42,122 nucleotides of DNA, from IMG/VR virus record IMGVR_UViG_2778261299_000011. One strand, written 5' to 3'. This DNA is from a virus (taxonomy: Duplodnaviria; Heunggongvirae; Uroviricota; Caudoviricetes). Position numbers and translations under genes: made by a program. How positions within the stretch are numbered: position 1 is the first letter of the stretch; each line of letters starts with the position of its first letter. The notes below the pieces were generated by a model. That model worked only from the letters and a program-made list of their open reading frames with translations. It was not told where the DNA came from and did no database searches. Of this stretch, positions 1,271 through 15,939 are shown piece after piece.

Positions 1271-1387
1271 CGCAAAGTCTCCGCAATTACACGCAAGAAA
1301 AAGCCGCATTGATGCGGCGATGGTAGGTCTGGATATCATTGAGCAATGAACAGGCCTCATCGAGTGTGAGGCGGTGTAATTTCATGG

Positions 1388-1732
1388 TTAGTCCTTGCGT
1401 AGCTCGCTGATTCTTCTGTAAGTCTCTGGTGCTTTGTTTCCGTGTATCTTCATTTCAGACTTCAACAGAGCAACGAGGGAATCCCATTCGTTGAGGATTC
1501 CTTTGAATGCCGGAACGCGCTTTGCAACCTTGTTGAATGAATCTCTGATTTCTGGAATCTGCTCAACAAGTGCAACGCATCGTCTGAAATCGGCTGCGTC
1601 ATGGGGAGCGCCGAAGTGATGACCATAGATATTCTTTTTCAGTCCACATGCGATTGAGGCAAGAGTTGCGCTACTGATGCCGACATCGCCAGTCGATTGC
1701 CATTTCAAAACCTTCATAGCCAAATCTGACAT
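1388..1732 (-). CDS. Hypothetical protein (114 aa from Met at 1732)
   Basis: ORF with GGAG SD-like motif upstream of ATG (MSDLAMKVLKWQ...); sits downstream of a minus-strand terminator hairpin. Confidence 0.5.
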   Translation of the reverse strand: MSDLAMKVLKWQSTGDVGISSATLASIACGLKKNIYGHHFGAPHDAADFRRCVALVEQIPEIRDSFNKVAKRVPAFKGILNEWDSLVALLKSEMKIHGNKAPETYRRISELRKD

Positions 1733-1749
1733 TTCTTGTCTCCAATAAA

Positions 1750-1775
1750 AAACCGCCATCAGGCGGCTTGGTGTT
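1750..1775 (-). terminator. Rho-independent terminator (minus strand)
   Basis: Minus-strand sense GCCGCC-TGAT-GGCGG hairpin followed by TTTTTTATTGG. Confidence 0.6.
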
Positions 1776-1926
1776 CTTTCAGTTCTTCAATTCGAATATT
1801 GGTTACGTCTGCATGCGCTATCTGCGCCCATAGCATCCAGTGGTCATAGCAGTCATTGATGTTCTCTGCTTCGATAACTCTGTTGAATGGTTCTCCATTC
1901 CATTCACCTGTGACTCGGAAGTGCAT
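1759..1926 (-). CDS. Small hypothetical protein (55 aa)
   Basis: Hand-translated ORF MHFRVTGEWNGEPFNRVIEAENINDCYDHWMLWAQIAHADVTNIRIEELKEHQAA, below the ORF-track size cut-off; ends in a terminator hairpin. Confidence 0.35.
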   Translation of the reverse strand: MHFRVTGEWNGEPFNRVIEAENINDCYDHWMLWAQIAHADVTNIRIEELKEHQAA

Positions 1927-2009
1927 TTATCATCTCCATAAAACAAAACTCGCCGTAGCGAGTTCAGATATAATTTCCACCAAAGGCAGTAGTTGCTTGA
2001 TGCTAAGAA

Positions 2010-2438
2010 TTATTCAATACCTATTCCTGTAATATCTTTTATCTTTTTCCTTGCAAAGCCTTTTGCTAGTGATTTTGAAACACTCATAAGTGTACTAATT
2101 CCCTCATCCTTAAAGTTTGTTTTTATAGCTTGCCAGACATCCTTTTGACGTAAGTCAGCAATAAAATCATGCCCTCTTGCTGTCAACCTCAGTGGTACTT
2201 CGATCCAACTATATCCAACACCTTCCCCTAACGCTTTGGACATTATATGACCGAACCCAGGTTTTCCATCAACCCTGACTATTAATTCGTAGTCACATAA
2301 TAATCGCATATGGAAAATAAAATCTTGGTCATATCTATTAAAGCCATTATCCTCTAGTTCACTAAGCATCGTGTCAGGGCCACGAGTTTTTTCGAATGCG
2401 ATAAGTAGATCTTTTAGATATTGCTGGTCTAATTTCAT
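2010..2438 (-). CDS. Hypothetical protein, 142 aa (AT-rich accessory gene)
   Basis: Clean ORF in a visibly AT-rich stretch; no family recognised. Confidence 0.55.
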   Translation of the reverse strand: MKLDQQYLKDLLIAFEKTRGPDTMLSELEDNGFNRYDQDFIFHMRLLCDYELIVRVDGKPGFGHIMSKALGEGVGYSWIEVPLRLTARGHDFIADLRQKDVWQAIKTNFKDEGISTLMSVSKSLAKGFARKKIKDITGIGIE

Positions 2439-2466
2439 TGCCGCCTCCGTGACATGTCACAGAGAT

Positions 2467-2727
2467 TTATATCATTAATTTTGTTTCGTGCCAGCCTTTG
2501 GTCACCCAGCATTGTGAGTCACCATTACACGGGCATGAATTAACAGGAACTCTCTCGCCGCACTTACCGCAACGTTTTCTGCTGATCGATTTTATACGCC
2601 AGCGCACACGTGCATCATCCTGGCGGCGCGGATACTTCCGGTATCTTTTTACGCGATATTCCCCTTCAATGGCACATACAAGAAGAGAGCCATCCACAGG
2701 AGTGATTGAGGAATCGACAACCAGCAA
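2467..2727 (-). CDS. Hypothetical small Cys-rich protein, possible zinc ribbon (86 aa)
   Basis: ORF with CGKCGERVPVNSCPC cysteine cluster. Confidence 0.4.
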   Translation of the reverse strand: MLVVDSSITPVDGSLLVCAIEGEYRVKRYRKYPRRQDDARVRWRIKSISRKRCGKCGERVPVNSCPCNGDSQCWVTKGWHETKLMI

Positions 2728-2783
2728 CGCTTAATTATCTATAGTGTCGTATTTGCTTCATAAAATATGGCGAATAACACAAA

Positions 2784-2815
2784 GCCCGCAGCAGCTCATT
2801 GTGCGGGCTTTTCTT
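2784..2815. terminator. Stem-loop terminator candidate, orientation ambiguous
   Basis: GCCCGCA-11 nt loop-TGCGGGC hairpin with TTTTCTT on plus side; lies between two minus-strand accessory genes. Confidence 0.4.
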
Positions 2816-2880
2816 ATACCTACTTCCTAGAGATAATTCTATGGAGGCATTAAATCAATACTGTCATTGGTAATATCATA

Positions 2881-3495
2881 TTATCTAAAAGTCTTTCCAC
2901 TTTTAACATCTAGGTATATTCTGTTCGACAACGTCATTCCTCCGCAATATGTGAAATAGATGTTTTTACCCTTATTGCTTGATGCCATCCACCCTCCGAT
3001 TTCCTTAAAATCGCTTTCCGTGCAGACCCCTTCATTTATTAACTTCCTAGCTGCCGAAGAAAACTCTTTTTTGTATATACGGTAGTCATCAGATCCTTTG
3101 ATTAAAGTATCATCTCCGCTCGCATTTTCAGCAGGATCTGATGGCCTTTCACTGCTAAGATCACTAAGTTTAACCCATTCTGAAAACTTGCCATTAACGA
3201 TTCCATTTTTTCTTGTGCAGGATTTATTACCTTCTTTAATATATTCGCTTTCCCCTCCAACACATGAGGCTGAATATGGCTCAGTTATACGAACCCATTC
3301 ACCTTTTTTTTCTAGAAAATCTACGCCTTCCCTGAAAAATAGTTTCCCAGCCACTCCACATTTACTTGAAGGGCAGGTATGTCTTTCCGTTCGATCAACA
3401 ACAACCCATAGTTTTGATTCATTTTTTGCCATTGCCGATGGTATTTGAGATGAGACAATTAACGTAAGCCCTAAAATTAGTATTGATTTTTTCAT
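2881..3495 (-). CDS. Secreted Cys-rich hypothetical protein with N-terminal signal peptide (204 aa)
   Basis: N-terminus MKKSILILGLTLIVSSQIPSAMA is signal-peptide-like; multiple cysteines; AT-rich codon usage. Confidence 0.65.
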   Translation of the reverse strand: MKKSILILGLTLIVSSQIPSAMAKNESKLWVVVDRTERHTCPSSKCGVAGKLFFREGVDFLEKKGEWVRITEPYSASCVGGESEYIKEGNKSCTRKNGIVNGKFSEWVKLSDLSSERPSDPAENASGDDTLIKGSDDYRIYKKEFSSAARKLINEGVCTESDFKEIGGWMASSNKGKNIYFTYCGGMTLSNRIYLDVKSGKTFR

Positions 3496-3793
3496 TGTAA
3501 TTTCCTTTTACTTTTTACAAAGCGTTTAATCATGGCTGATTATCTCTAAGCGTAGTAACAGCCTTGTGCGAAACATGTTACCAAATCGCCATTTCAGTGT
3601 ATCCGCAGTTAGGCTGCCACTTCAAGGATTCCTAATTACATGGTACGTAAGCGTAAAATCCCGTTGGTTGGCTGGTAATAACTCTGATCAAATCTCCCTT
3701 GTCTTTTGCTCTTACGTATGCAGCTCTTGTGTATTCAACCCAGGCCTCCAGTTCAGTAATACGCTTACTTCCATCCGAGATAACACCTTCTAC

Positions 3794-4045
3794 TCACGCT
3801 GCTCGTTGAGTTTTGATTTTTGCTGTCTCCAGCTCAACACGCAGTTTCCCCACCGTTAGCGCAATATCCTCGTTCTCCTGGTCGCGGCGTTTGATGTATT
3901 GCTGGTTTCTTTCCCGTTCATCCAGCAGTGTCAGCACAATCGATGGTGTTACCAGCTCATGGAAAAGGTCCGCGTCAAATCCCCAGTTGTCATGCATTGC
4001 CTGCTCTGCCGCTTCACGCAGTGCCTGAGAGTGAATTACGCTCAC
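3794..4045 (-). CDS. Hypothetical protein (83 aa), early-left operon
   Basis: ORF overlapping the start of the downstream TraR-like gene by 4 nt (operonic coupling). Confidence 0.5.
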   Translation of the reverse strand: MSVIHSQALREAAEQAMHDNWGFDADLFHELVTPSIVLTLLDERERNQQYIKRRDQENEDIALTVGKLRVELETAKIKTQRAA

Positions 4046-4263
4046 TTCGAACCTCTCTGTTTACTGATAAGCTCCAGATCTTCCTGGCAACTTGCACAAG
4101 TCCGACAACCCTGAACGGCCAGGCGTCTTCGCTCATCTATGGGATCGCCACACTCACAACAATGAGTGGCAGATACAGCCTGGTGGTTCAGGCGGCGCAT
4201 TTTTATTGCTGTGTTGCGCTGTAATTCTTCAATTTCTGATGCTGAATCAATGACGTCTGCCAT
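4042..4263 (-). CDS. TraR/DksA-family C4 zinc-finger protein (73 aa)
   Basis: CCECG...17 aa...CRTCASC Cys4 arrangement characteristic of TraR/DksA-type zinc fingers common in lambdoid early-left operons. Confidence 0.75.
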   Translation of the reverse strand: MADVIDSASEIEELQRNTAIKMRRLNHQAVSATHCCECGDPIDERRRLAVQGCRTCASCQEDLELISKQRGSK

Positions 4264-4314
4264 CTTCCATTAATTCCTGAATTGTTGGTTAATACGCTTG
4301 GGGGTAAAGGCGAG

Positions 4315-4339
4315 CAATAAAAAAGGAGCCTGTAGCTCC
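4315..4339 (-). terminator. Rho-independent terminator (minus strand)
   Basis: GGAGC-5 nt loop-GCTCC hairpin followed on the minus strand by TTTTTTATTG. Confidence 0.6.
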
Positions 4340-4361
4340 CTGATAATTTTGCTTTTCATGT

Positions 4362-4577
4362 TCATCGTTCCTTAAAGACGCCGTTTAACATGCCGATTGC
4401 CAGGCTTAAATGAGTCGGTGTGAATCCCATCAGCGTTACCGTTTCGCGGTGCTTCTTCAGTACGCTACGGCAAATGTCATCGACGTTTTTATCCGGAAAC
4501 TGCTGTCTGGCTTTTTTGATTTCAGAATTAGCCTGACGGGCAATGCTGCGAAGGGCGTTTTCCTGCTGAGGTGTCAT
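4362..4577 (-). CDS. Hypothetical protein (71 aa from MTPQQ), lambda orf61-region-like
   Basis: ORF in the exo-proximal small-ORF cluster; likely start MTPQQENALRSIARQ. Confidence 0.45.
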   Translation of the reverse strand: MTPQQENALRSIARQANSEIKKARQQFPDKNVDDICRSVLKKHRETVTLMGFTPTHLSLAIGMLNGVFKER

Positions 4578-4653
4578 TGAACAAGTCCCATGTCGGCAAG
4601 CATAAGCACACAGAATATGAAGCCCGCTGCCAGAAAAATGCATTCAGTGGTTG

Positions 4654-4845
4654 TCATACCTGGTCTCTCTCATCTGCTTCTGCTTTCGCCACCATCATTT
4701 CCAGCTTTTGTGAAAGGGATGCGGCTAACGTATGAAATTCTTCGTCTGTTTCTACTGGTATTGGCACAAACCTGACTCCAATTTGAGCGAGGCTATGTGC
4801 CATCTCGATACTCGTTCTTAACTCAACGGGAGATGCTTTGTGCAT
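4654..4845 (-). CDS. Hypothetical protein (63 aa), lambda orf63-like
   Basis: [63 protein letters not shown]; position and size as lambda orf63 (from memory). Confidence 0.5.
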   Translation of the reverse strand: MHKASPVELRTSIEMAHSLAQIGVRFVPIPVETDEEFHTLAASLSQKLEMMVAKAEADERDQV

Positions 4846-5009
4846 ACAGCCCCCCCCCGTTTATTATTTATCTCCTCAGCCAGCCGCTGTGCTTTCAGGG
4901 GATTTCGGATAACAGGAAGGCCGGGAAATACCCAGCCTCGCTTTGTAACGGAGTAGACGAAAGTGATTGCGCCTACCCGGATATTATCGTGAGGATGCTT
5001 CATCGCCAT
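4818..5009 (-). CDS. Hypothetical protein (63 aa), lambda orf60a-like; contains a 9-nt homopolymer
   Basis: [55 protein letters not shown]...; overlaps exo stop. Confidence 0.5.
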
Positions 5010-5680
5010 TGCTCCCCAAATACAAAACCAATTTCAGCCAGTGCCTCGTCCATTTTTTCGATGAACTCCGGCACCATCTCGTCAAAACTCGCAATGTACT
5101 TTTCATCCCGCTCAACCACGACATAATGCAGTCCTTCACGCTTCATACGCGGGTCATAGTTGGCAAAGTACCAGGCATCTTTTCGTGTCACCCACATGCT
5201 GTACTGCACCTGGGCCATGTAAGCCGATTTTATGGCCTCGAAACCACCGAGCCGGAACTTCATGAAATCCCGGGAGGTAAACGGGCATTTCAGTTCAAGG
5301 CCGTTGCCGTCACTGCATAAACCATCGGGAGAGCAGGCGGTGCGCATACTTTCGTCGCGATAGATGATCGGGGATTCAGTAACATTCACGCCGGAAGTGA
5401 ACTCAAAGAGGGCTCTGGCGTCGTTCTCGTACTGTTTTCCCCAGGCCAGCGCCTTAGCGTTAACTTCCGGAGCCACACCGGTGCAAACCTCGGCAAGCAG
5501 GGTGTGGAAGTAGGACATTTTCATGTCAGGCCACTTCTTTCCGGAGCGGGGTTTTGCTATCACATTGTGAACCTCTGAAGCGGTGATGACGCCGAGCCGT
5601 AATTTGTGCCACGCATCATCCCCCTGTTCGACAGCTCTCACGTCGATCCCGGTACGCTGCAGTATAATGTCCGGTGTCAT
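5000..5680 (-). CDS. exo: Lambda exonuclease (Red alpha)
   Basis: 226 aa; [65 protein letters not shown] matches remembered lambda Exo. Confidence 0.95.
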
Positions 5681-6462
5681 GCTGCCACCTTCTGCTCAGT
5701 GGCTTTCTGTTTCAGGAATCCAAGAGCTTTCACTGCTTCGGCCTGTGTCAGTTCCGACGATGCGCGAATGTCGCGGCGAAATATCTGGGAACAGAGCGGC
5801 AATAAGTCGTCATCCCATGTTTTGTCCAGGGCAATCAGCAGAGTGTTAATCTCCTGCATGGTTTCATCGTTAACCGGAGTGATGTCGCGTTCCGGCTGAC
5901 GTTCTGCAGTGTATGCGGTATTTTCGACAATGCGCTCGGCTTCATCCTTGTCATAGATACCAGCAAATCCGAAGGCCAGACGGGCACACTGAATCATGGC
6001 TTTATGACGTAACATCCGTTTGGGATGCGACTGCCACGGTCCGGTGATTTCTCTGCCTTCGCGGGTTTTGAATGGTTCGCGGCGGCATTCATCCATCCAC
6101 TCGGTAACGCAGATCGGATGATTGCGGTCCTTGCGGTAAATCCGGCATGTGCAGGATTCATTGTCCTGCTCAAAGTCCATACCATCAAACTGCTGGTTTT
6201 CATTGATGATGCGGGACCAGCCATCAACGCCCACCACCGGAACGATGCCGTTCTGCTTATCAGGGAAGGCGTAAATTTCTTTCGTCCACGGATTAAGGCC
6301 GTACTGGTTGGCGACGATCAACAATGCGATGAACTGCGCATCGCTGGCATCACCTTTAAATGCCGTCTGGCGAAGAGTGGTGATCAGTTCCTGTGGGTCG
6401 ACAGAATCCATGCCGACACGTTCAGCCAGCTTCCCTGCCAGCGTTGCGAGTGCTGTACTCAT
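5677..6462 (-). CDS. bet: Single-strand annealing protein Bet (Red beta)
   Basis: 261 aa; [66 protein letters not shown]; overlaps exo start as in lambda. Confidence 0.95.
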
Positions 6463-6467
6463 CCGTT

Positions 6468-6884
6468 TTATACCTCTGAATCAATATCAACCTGGTGGCG
6501 AGCAATAGTTTCAACCATGTACCGGATGTGTTCTGCCATGCGTTCCTGAAACTCAACATCGTCATCAAACGCACGGGTAATGGCTTTTTTGCTGGCCCCG
6601 TGGCGTTGCAAATGATCGATGCATAGCGATTCAAACAGGTGCTGGGGCAGGCCTTTTTCCATGTCGTCTGCCAGTTTTGCCTCTTTCTCTTCACGGGCGA
6701 TCTGCTGGTAGTGACGCGCCCAGCTCTGAGCCTCAAGACGATCCTGAATGTAATAAGCGTTCATGGCTGAACTCCTGAAATAGCTGTGAAAATATCGCCC
6801 GCGAAATGCCGGGCTGATTAGGAAAACAGGGAAGGGGGGTAGTGAATGCTTTTGCTTGATCTCAGTTTCAGTATTAATATCCAT
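6468..6884 (-). CDS. gam: Gam, RecBCD inhibitor
   Basis: 138 aa; [61 protein letters not shown] matches lambda Gam. Confidence 0.95.
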
Positions 6885-6982: not shown

Positions 6983-7115
6983 TTTTTGGGACTCCTGGCT
7001 GATTAAGTATGTCGATAAGGCGTTTCCATCCGTCACGTAATTTACGGGTGATTCGTTCAAGTAAAGATTCGGAAGGGCAGCCAGCAACAGGCCACCCTGC
7101 AATGGCATATTGCAT
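6951..7115 (-). CDS. cIII: CIII (FtsH inhibitor, stabilises CII)
   Basis: Hand-translated [54 protein letters not shown] (54 aa) matches lambda CIII; the ORF track merged this with another frame. Confidence 0.85.
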   Translation of the reverse strand: MQYAIAGWPVAGCPSESLLERITRKLRDGWKRLIDILNQPGVPKNGSNTYGYPD

Positions 7116-7187
7116 GGTGTGCTCCTTATTTATACATAACGAAAAACGACTCGAGTGAAGCGTTATTGGTATGCGGTAACGCCGCGC

Positions 7188-15783: not shown

Positions 15784-15858
15784 GGGTCAGTCGTATAAAG
15801 GTCATTACGGAAGGCTGTTAACCTTCTTATCGTGGTTCGAGTCCACGCTGTCCCGCCA
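15784..15858 (+). tRNA. tRNA-Asn(GTT)-like, phage-encoded, somewhat divergent
   Basis: Hand-folded cloverleaf: acceptor GGGTCAG/CTGTCCC (one mismatch), anticodon stem GAAGG/CCTTC with loop CTGTTAA, T-arm CGTGG-TTCGAGT-CCACG, 3' GCCA; D-arm weak. Confidence 0.5.
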
Positions 15859-15863
15859 AATAT

Positions 15864-15939
15864 GCTGGTTTAGCTCCAATGGTAGAGCAGTCGCCTTGTA
15901 AGCGAATGGGTAGCGGTTCAAGTCCGTTAACCAGCACCA
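15864..15939 (+). tRNA. tRNA-Thr(TGT)-like, phage-encoded
   Basis: Hand-folded: acceptor GCTGGTT/AACCAGC, D-arm GCTC-CAATGGTA-GAGC, anticodon loop CTTGTAA, T-arm AGCGG-TTCAAGT-CCGTT, 3' ACCA; overall resembles E. coli tRNA-Thr. Confidence 0.65.

Follow-up and report, generated by a model that had tools for sequence, protein, structure and literature searches.

What fills the interval between xis and exo in a lambda-like prophage from which the genes that lambda carries there are missing, and which of the open reading frames (ORFs) found in their place are working genes? The question is raised by the IMG/VR record IMGVR_UViG_2778261299_000011, a stretch of 42,122 nucleotides (nt), hereafter the window, which its ORF map and blastn matches identify as a lambda-like prophage in lambda map orientation. 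A first-pass annotation, made from the sequence without database searches, had placed three accessory genes in this interval, and the coordinates and minus-strand orientation of the corresponding ORFs, which encode products of 142, 86 and 204 amino acids (aa), stand as it gave them (Table 1). Two of these ORFs are indeed intact accessory genes, one encoding a member of the DUF2513 family and the other an exported protein with an SH3b-type fold, neither of which had been recognized as such, nor had the truncated ea22 gene beside them; the 86-aa ORF is not an independent gene, and is instead a deletion fusion of a humD remnant with the 3' half of a 112-aa gene. As read from sequence comparison, the insert thus consists of two intact, low-GC (guanine plus cytosine) cargo genes, each mobile on its own and separated from the other by gene debris, and for this anatomy, namely the mosaic structure and the identity of the debris, our confidence is high. 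The overall explanation that is considered best, and that we regard as somewhat probable, is that of a mosaic insert with two lysogen-expressed moron cassettes and a deletion-fused pseudogene.

The insert in the ea8.5/ea22 slot

The position of the insert was defined by blastn against lambda (J02459). Window 1743-1974 corresponds to lambda 29102-29333 (95.7% identity) and window 3747-6552 to lambda 30094-32900 (96.6% identity), while no lambda DNA match was found between 1975 and 3746. Because lambda homology stops at 1974 and resumes at 3747, the intervening segment replaces lambda 29334-30093, a stretch comprising ea8.5 (29374-29655) and the 3'-terminal 247 nt of ea22, and the slot is therefore the one to which the cluster had first been assigned. 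The GC content of the insert is 0.398, against 0.48-0.50 in its flanks and 0.49 in the window as a whole; the initial description of the cluster as AT-rich applies to the 142-aa (0.366) and 204-aa (0.379) genes, but not to the 86-aa ORF (0.48). Immediately beyond the insert lies a stump of ea22 whose 78 residues are 94% identical in BLASTP to residues 1-78 of the 182 residues of lambda Ea22; it carries a pseudogene label in strain PK8568, and the Pfam Ead_Ea22 match is restricted to this neighbouring ORF. The remainder of ea22 is, on this alignment, lost at the insert boundary.

The slot and strand are consequently those of lambda ea8.5 and ea22 (PMC7093339, PMC10834534), and the N-terminal 78 residues of Ea22 are kept, whereas ea8.5 is absent and Ea22 residues 79-182, including the C-terminal domain, are gone. 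This exo-xis region is reported to be transcribed early from pL, and Stx phages to lack, of all its genes, only ea8.5 (PMC7093339). Assignment to known lambdoid early proteins had been named at the outset as one outcome that would overturn the accessory-gene reading; none of the three ORFs has sequence similarity to Ea8.5, Ea22 or any other lambda early protein. Searches of window 1900-3900 against Rfam gave no matches.

The closest relatives of the insert are found in phage Chlobot (PP925838) and in 131 of 5,426 complete E. coli genomes, which match it at 99.5-99.8% identity over the whole 1.7-kb region, in two pieces, with 218 extra bases. This undeleted block is also present on 36 IMG/VR contigs (88-100% identity) and, at 99.4-99.5% identity, on 16 large plasmids from Citrobacter, Klebsiella, Enterobacter and E. 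coli. In pA18-1 (NZ_CP022274.1; locus L020, 5000-9000), the one plasmid examined, it lies in a prophage fragment between Tn5403 and IS5. This is an IncA plasmid, and the neighbours of the block there are TraR, DUF1317/DUF1382, a lysis protein and trkG, as in a Rac/lambda-like prophage fragment.

The chimeric ORF and the DUF2513 unit

Profile searches, which had been proposed as a check, split the 86-aa ORF in two: its PHROG matches are UmuD/HumD-like over aa 1-36 and belong to phrog_536 over aa 24-85. The NCBIfam HumD model (NF051876) aligns aa 1-36 with model positions 47-82 of 129 at 50.1 bits, against a cut-off of 120, and Pfam Peptidase_S24 also stays below its cut-off (14.1 vs 23.3); a full-length HumD/UmuD' protein with its Ser-Lys catalytic region is not encoded here. 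At the DNA level, the humD fragment is 86-91% identical to humD/umuD-like genes of P1-like phages and plasmids, and the other half is 95% identical to the phrog_536 gene. In the relatives, annotation treats the humD piece as an incomplete 'DNA repair protein', and the additional 218 bp supply the start, the ribosome-binding site and codons 1-61 of a gene of its own, 112 aa in length (WP_001129736.1). The junction was located by a three-way comparison of the window with two segments of one locus (L002, 3990-3901 and 3770-3691), and the blastn pieces overlap there. As these alignments show, the 86-aa ORF joins fragments of two genes, brought together by a 218-bp deletion at a 7-bp microhomology.

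The parents of both halves can be named, P1 HumD/UmuD' for the first and the 112-aa phrog_536 'transcriptional regulator' of phiV10/TL-2011b-type phages for the second, but only internal or C-terminal fragments of them are present in the window, and neither parent protein could be produced from it. The 112-aa family has six invariant cysteines (C40, C79, C82, C91, C93 and C99), of which the window retains the last five, the C79-C99 cluster, within the last 51 residues of the protein; C40 and the N-terminal 61 residues are missing, and the combination of N-terminal half and C-terminal cluster that characterizes the family does not occur here. The zinc-ribbon-like cluster that had been noticed in the 86-aa product is thus a real, conserved motif, but it represents the C-terminal part of a protein that has lost the rest. 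The N-terminal half of the intact protein is basic and ribbon-helix-helix-like, with a weak resemblance to the LexA-regulated PRK11675 (E 0.007); Pfam has no match for the intact 112-aa protein. In phiV10/TL-2011b-type phages the phrog_536 gene, with or without DUF2513, stands immediately upstream of the small terminase gene (loci L015-L017, 4635-6113; L008, 2279-3332), a position that would fit a late-gene regulator.

Could the 86-aa ORF still be one of three functional accessory genes, encoding a zinc-ribbon protein and forming a separate expression unit beyond the preceding hairpin? Its 86 codons are open, the CxxC...CxC...C cluster is kept, and its exact sequence occurs on 35 E. coli contigs, because of which the deletion is to be regarded as an inherited lineage variant rather than a sequencing error. 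An earlier idea that the deletion was private to the window, suggested by its absence from the best-ranked complete E. coli records and from phage records, was rejected since the same 35 contigs share the sequence. Nevertheless, such a gene appears improbable: the frame is fused across the deletion; it would start at a TTG located directly after a TAA stop codon, with no Shine-Dalgarno sequence before it; residues 1-61 of the 112-aa family, C40 among them, are missing from it; its own N-terminus is an internal HumD piece without the HumD ends; and in a junction search of the 5,426 complete E. coli genomes, the 15 best-ranked records listed were all undeleted, in two pieces with the extra 218 bp. 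The ORF would rather be a non-functional remnant, the retained part of which carries the promoter of the next gene.

That next gene, the 142-aa ORF, was identified by the same searches as a full-length member of DUF2513 (PF10711), above the curated cut-off (42.7 bits vs 29.6, E 7.7e-11), with residues 2-115 spanning model positions 1-100 of 100 and a match to phrog_585 at E 2e-34; NCBIfam has no match for it. The parent family is itself without known function, and a full-text literature search found no paper on the function of DUF2513 (PF10711). Its homologues, 91 in Enterobacterales, share an invariant RLT..GH motif, which in our own reading is typical of winged-helix proteins and would make DUF2513 winged-helix-like. 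Sequence searches of the PDB, with single sequences and with profiles, returned nothing for DUF2513 or for the 112-aa family. One PDB profile search (A1) listed de novo designed TIM barrels at E ~1e-6; these matches cover one helical stretch only and were judged to be composition artefacts.

The DNA upstream of the DUF2513 gene carries two conserved elements. The first is a predicted promoter that falls within the 3' end of the 112-aa gene remnant and consists of CTGGCA (2494-2489), a 17-nt spacer, TG (2474-2473) and TATAAA (2471-2466). The second is the perfect palindrome GTGACATGTCAC, which directly precedes the GGAGG ribosome-binding site (2444-2448) of the gene. Six independent contexts (the window and loci L077, L078, L009, L012 and L015) keep the palindrome with no more than one mismatch, and five of them keep the TGnTATAAA block. 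In the window there is one exact copy of the palindrome, and further operator-like copies do not exceed chance. The gene itself is found in several settings: in Cronobacter phiV10-like prophages the order is 112-aa gene, 28 nt, DUF2513, just before the small terminase gene, the 28-nt spacing being that of the window, and stand-alone copies occur in Citrobacter prophages, within the nin region, and in Serratia, close to the integrase. In all of them, DUF2513 keeps 60-70 bp of upstream DNA that include the last codons of the 112-aa gene. We infer from this pattern that DUF2513 and its upstream block may form a self-contained, probably self-repressed expression unit, in which the protein would bind DNA and, by way of the palindrome at the transcription start, repress the promoter from which it is itself expressed. 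The deletion would then have spared the 3' end of the 112-aa gene because that end carries the promoter of this unit.

Distant DUF2513 genes (45-49% identity; loci L082 and L086-L089) have a different conserved upstream block, GGCATTCACTGAGTGCCTGTGATAATGCTAAATTA, which is an inverted repeat beside an extended -10-like motif, some 40-70 bp ahead of the start of DUF2513 (locus position 3001).

The exported 204-aa protein

The 204-aa product had been described as probably exported, with a signal peptide and several cysteines, and this description is borne out. Its N-terminus reads MKK-SILILGLTLIVSS-QIPSAMA/K (the slash marks the predicted cleavage site), with a positive n-region, a hydrophobic core of 13 residues, and a c-region ending in an AxA cleavage motif, and it has no lipobox cysteine. 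The protein has six cysteines (C41, C46, C78, C93, C158 and C184), each of which is invariant or at least 90% conserved among 40 aligned homologues. The product is very probably exported and disulfide-bonded.

Structure prediction, likewise proposed at first pass, gave an AF2 model with a mean pLDDT of 90, in which residues 1-23 alone are disordered. Structural matches place a beta-barrel of SH3b type after the signal peptide, the best of them being to domains of endolysins, NlpC/P60 peptidases and lysostaphin (e.g. PDB 9ovi, 4krt and 6rk4). The domain differs from these wall-binding modules in that no catalytic domain is attached to it, in that it carries an insertion of ~35 residues with two conserved cysteines, and in its origin from a Gram-negative prophage, with a predicted periplasmic location. 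It is followed by an alpha/beta C-domain that has not been described and that, queried alone, has no Pfam match. NCBIfam has no match for the 204-aa protein, and no catalytic family was matched in Pfam, NCBIfam or PHROGs.

The family to which the protein belongs is large. It comprises 83 homologues at 90% clustering, and a profile search extended it to 1,547 clusters at 50% identity (E <= 1e-3), with hosts that include E. coli, E. fergusonii, Pseudomonas and Aeromonas as well as many metagenomes; every named member is labelled hypothetical. The homologues carry signal peptides, lipoboxes or transmembrane anchors, and the N-terminal extensions of the long members are zinc ribbons and ankyrin repeats, with no enzyme domain among them. 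The C-domain is also found alone in viral contigs, behind a signal peptide, lipobox or membrane anchor, and since it occurs by itself, this suggests that the C-domain is the working part of the protein and the SH3b domain its tether.

Across the contexts examined, the family has no conserved partner gene. In Pseudomonas islands of two kinds, members immediately follow integrases; others are found in an Aeromonas prophage, among insertion sequences, and once in an apparently chromosomal setting, and a homologue lies just downstream of an intact humD gene in a P1/P7-like phage-plasmid. The copy in this phage-plasmid is 85% identical to that of the window from 142 bp upstream of the ATG through the stop codon, and the gene can therefore be said to move with its 5' region. 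This region holds AAGGA at 3508-3504, 9-13 nt ahead of the ATG, and a promoter-like pair formed by TTGAAG (3625-3620), an 18-nt spacer and TACACT (3601-3596), both hexamers of which are kept in the phage-plasmid copy; the leader has no unusual structure (z -0.67). The phage-plasmid comes from E. fergusonii samples (loci L018, 3681-6440, and L019, 3093-5851), where the homologue faces a convergent block that includes dUTPase and Tad2-like (PF11195) genes, which suggests an accessory or anti-defence hot spot.

The resemblance to endolysins evokes the possibility that lysis or wall degradation is the task of the 204-aa protein, as an enzyme or as an endolysin accessory, and one stand-alone C-domain homologue does sit between a holin and an endolysin. 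This possibility is rated as slight, in that the structural matches are confined to non-catalytic SH3b binding domains, over 55-96 aligned residues, no catalytic family was detected, and the window gene lies in the exo-xis region and not beside an annotated lysis gene. Furthermore, in locus L071 the C-domain gene runs antiparallel to the lysis genes. More generally, C-domain-only relatives are found on the opposite strand inside one lysis module and one tail module, which is a classic moron position.

Measured against the E. fergusonii copy, the 204-aa gene has a ratio of non-synonymous to synonymous substitution (dN/dS) of 0.078, indicating strong purifying selection, and against the Pseudomonas and Aeromonas copies synonymous sites are saturated and non-synonymous divergence is low. 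These values bear on the suggestion that the insert in its entirety is hitch-hiker DNA in decay, serving neither phage nor host. Debris is certainly present, in the form of the humD fragment, the half-deleted 112-aa gene and the truncated ea22, and the block rides passively on plasmids between transposable elements, but selection of this kind on the 204-aa gene, the full-length state of both intact ORFs in many genera, and the fact that the deletion spared the DUF2513 upstream block exactly leave such an explanation with very little probability.

Table 1. Features of the insert and of the surrounding prophage map (window coordinates).
Feature	Position	Strand	Basis
int	1-1074	minus	ORF map
xis	~1052-1270	minus	ORF map
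Terminator-like hairpin GAACTCGC-TACG-GCGAGTTTTGTTTTAT	1946-1965	minus	pattern scan, folding
Mosaic accessory insert, 1.77 kb	1975-3746		blastn vs lambda J02459, GC
142-aa DUF2513 gene, intact	2010-2438	minus	Pfam PF10711, phrog_585
Perfect 12-bp palindrome GTGACATGTCAC, candidate operator	2449-2460		conservation in six contexts
Predicted DUF2513 promoter	2466-2494	minus	relaxed scan, 10/13
86-aa chimeric ORF, TTG start	2467-2727	minus	split PHROG matches, relatives
Deletion junction, 7-bp microhomology	2621-2627		GCCGCCA on minus strand
Internal fragment of P1-type humD (S24 peptidase), ~35 codons	2625-2730	minus	DNA identity, NF051876
GC-rich hairpin AAAGCCCGCA...TGCGGGCTTT	2782-2811	both	pattern scan, folding
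204-aa exported protein gene	2881-3495	minus	ORF map, AF2 model
Undescribed alpha/beta C-domain (aa 125-204)	2884-3123	minus	
SH3b-like domain with Cys-containing insertion (aa 28-109)	3169-3414	minus	
Signal peptide (aa 1-23)	3427-3495	minus	read from sequence
Conserved 5' region of 204-aa gene	3496-3637	minus	85% identity to phage-plasmid copy
Truncated ea22	3794-4045	minus	BLASTP, Pfam Ead_Ea22
exo	5000-5680	minus	ORF map
bet	5677-6462	minus	ORF map
gam	6468-6884	minus	ORF map

Expression and possible roles of the cargo genes

Each of the two intact genes is followed by a predicted terminator. The hairpin between the 204-aa gene and the 86-aa ORF, which had been noticed from the start, has a 7-bp GC stem, A and T runs on either side and T-rich tails on both strands; the pattern scan flags it on the plus strand, and the minus-strand RNA folds at -22 kcal/mol (z -2.17) and continues into UUUGUGUUAUU. 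It looks like a bidirectional, intrinsic-terminator-like site after the 204-aa gene. The second hairpin, downstream of DUF2513 and within the lambda-homologous DNA of 1743-1974, folds at -13.1 kcal/mol (z -2.76).

Morons were reportedly defined by Juhala and colleagues in 2000 for the lambdoid phages HK97 and HK022. The two genes resemble the morons of lambdoid phages in being foreign and of lower GC content (0.37-0.38 vs 0.49), in being inserted, as the lambda comparison places them, between genes that adjoin in related phages, in having an intrinsic terminator after them, here predicted in the two hairpins, and in standing alone in many unrelated mobile elements. They differ from them in that a strong promoter of its own is not evident for the 204-aa gene, in that expression in the lysogen is here a prediction, and in that the insert replaced resident genes instead of merely lying between them. 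With regard to promoters, the two candidates, TTGAAG-N18-TACACT and CTGGCA-N17-TGaTATAAA, are conserved, and neither passed a strict scan.

The intact genes could instead be ordinary pL early genes, made only after infection or induction and tuning the lysis-lysogeny decision or host physiology. They share the orientation of int, xis, exo, bet and gam, the promoter predictions within the insert are weak, and for the exo-xis genes of lambda both expression from pL early in infection and an influence on lysogenisation have been reported (PMC7093339, PMC3824215). Arguing in the other direction, two terminator-like hairpins bracket the cassettes, the same genes occur beside integrases in islands without a lambda-type pL operon, relatives lie on the opposite strand inside late operons, and an exported protein of wall-binding type would be odd in a cytoplasmic decision circuit. 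Expression from pL only is seen as a minority prospect, if one of some weight, and it and the moron reading are not exclusive.

If both genes are morons, as we prefer to think, each would be transcribed independently in the lysogen, and pL readthrough under N antitermination would reach them during lytic growth. The 204-aa protein would be exported by Sec and folded with disulfides; its SH3b domain would dock it on peptidoglycan, and the C-domain would act on an envelope target, the likeliest being an incoming phage or a wall-degrading enzyme, with an effect resembling superinfection exclusion. Phage-encoded superinfection-exclusion factors that are periplasmic proteins or lipoproteins include T4 Sp, T5 Llp and Cor of phi80 and N15; like the 204-aa protein as proposed here, these are small, exported and act on the envelope, a likeness that is one of functional analogy only. 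A role of this kind is put forward tentatively and is, on balance, doubtful, and a literature search on WP_000748282 and on SH3 with superinfection exclusion found nothing useful.

Several observations weigh against two lysogen-expressed morons with a dead ORF between them. The strict promoter scan found none on the minus strand, and the scores of the candidates come from a relaxed scan of our own, in which the one upstream of the 204-aa gene is weak (8/12). The proposed -10 element of DUF2513, TATAAA, is without the usual final T and is not kept in the Serratia copy. All genes lie on the strand of the pL operon, so that expression from pL alone is possible. The 86-aa sequence is stable across the 35 contigs, and it may be translated. 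As regards the 204-aa protein, peptidoglycan binding is derived from the fold, and Pfam SH3_3 scores below its cut-off (16.2 vs 27 bits, E 0.012), a further difference from the known SH3b domains, although some homologues pass this cut-off. Finally, none of the three ORFs matches a defence family of PADLOC-DB 2.0 at E <= 0.1.

Other features of the window were recorded in passing. A 97-aa ORF on the plus strand (3566-3859), which overlaps the ea22 stump and in phage Chlobot is labelled as encoding a hypothetical protein, is probably spurious; Pfam has no match for it. Between xis and an ORF resembling lambda orf55 lies a 123-aa ORF (1388-1759, minus strand; phrog_1229), which phage Chlobot lacks and strain PK8568 has with a frameshift; because window 1319-1742 has no lambda match, this is a second variable insert. 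Within the DNA that is 96.6% identical to lambda, a 73-aa TraR/DksA-type zinc-finger protein (4042-4263, minus strand) fits the description of lambda Orf73, which has been reported to reprogram host transcription (PMC9239242). Further away are the Rfam element Lambda_thermo, the cIII thermoregulator (7070-7128, minus strand; 88.5 bits), and two adjacent tRNA genes within the prophage, tRNA-Asn(GTT) and tRNA-Thr(TGT) (15784-15939, plus strand).

The region is a routine case of mosaic cargo, carried in the variable exo-xis interval of a lambdoid prophage, and the understanding of lambdoid phages would remain unchanged by either family unless a clear phenotype emerges. The families involved (PF10711, phrog_8310 and phrog_536) are already catalogued as hypothetical, and what is modestly new is the joining, in the 204-aa family, of an SH3b tether to an undescribed, widespread extracytoplasmic domain. 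The 86-aa case shows how a small deletion can yield a plausible-looking ORF. The SH3b-plus-C-domain family has no assigned function, and it is large, under purifying selection and a recurrent stand-alone cargo of diverse mobile elements, while the DUF2513 cassette offers a concrete candidate operator-promoter pair for a family without a literature of its own.

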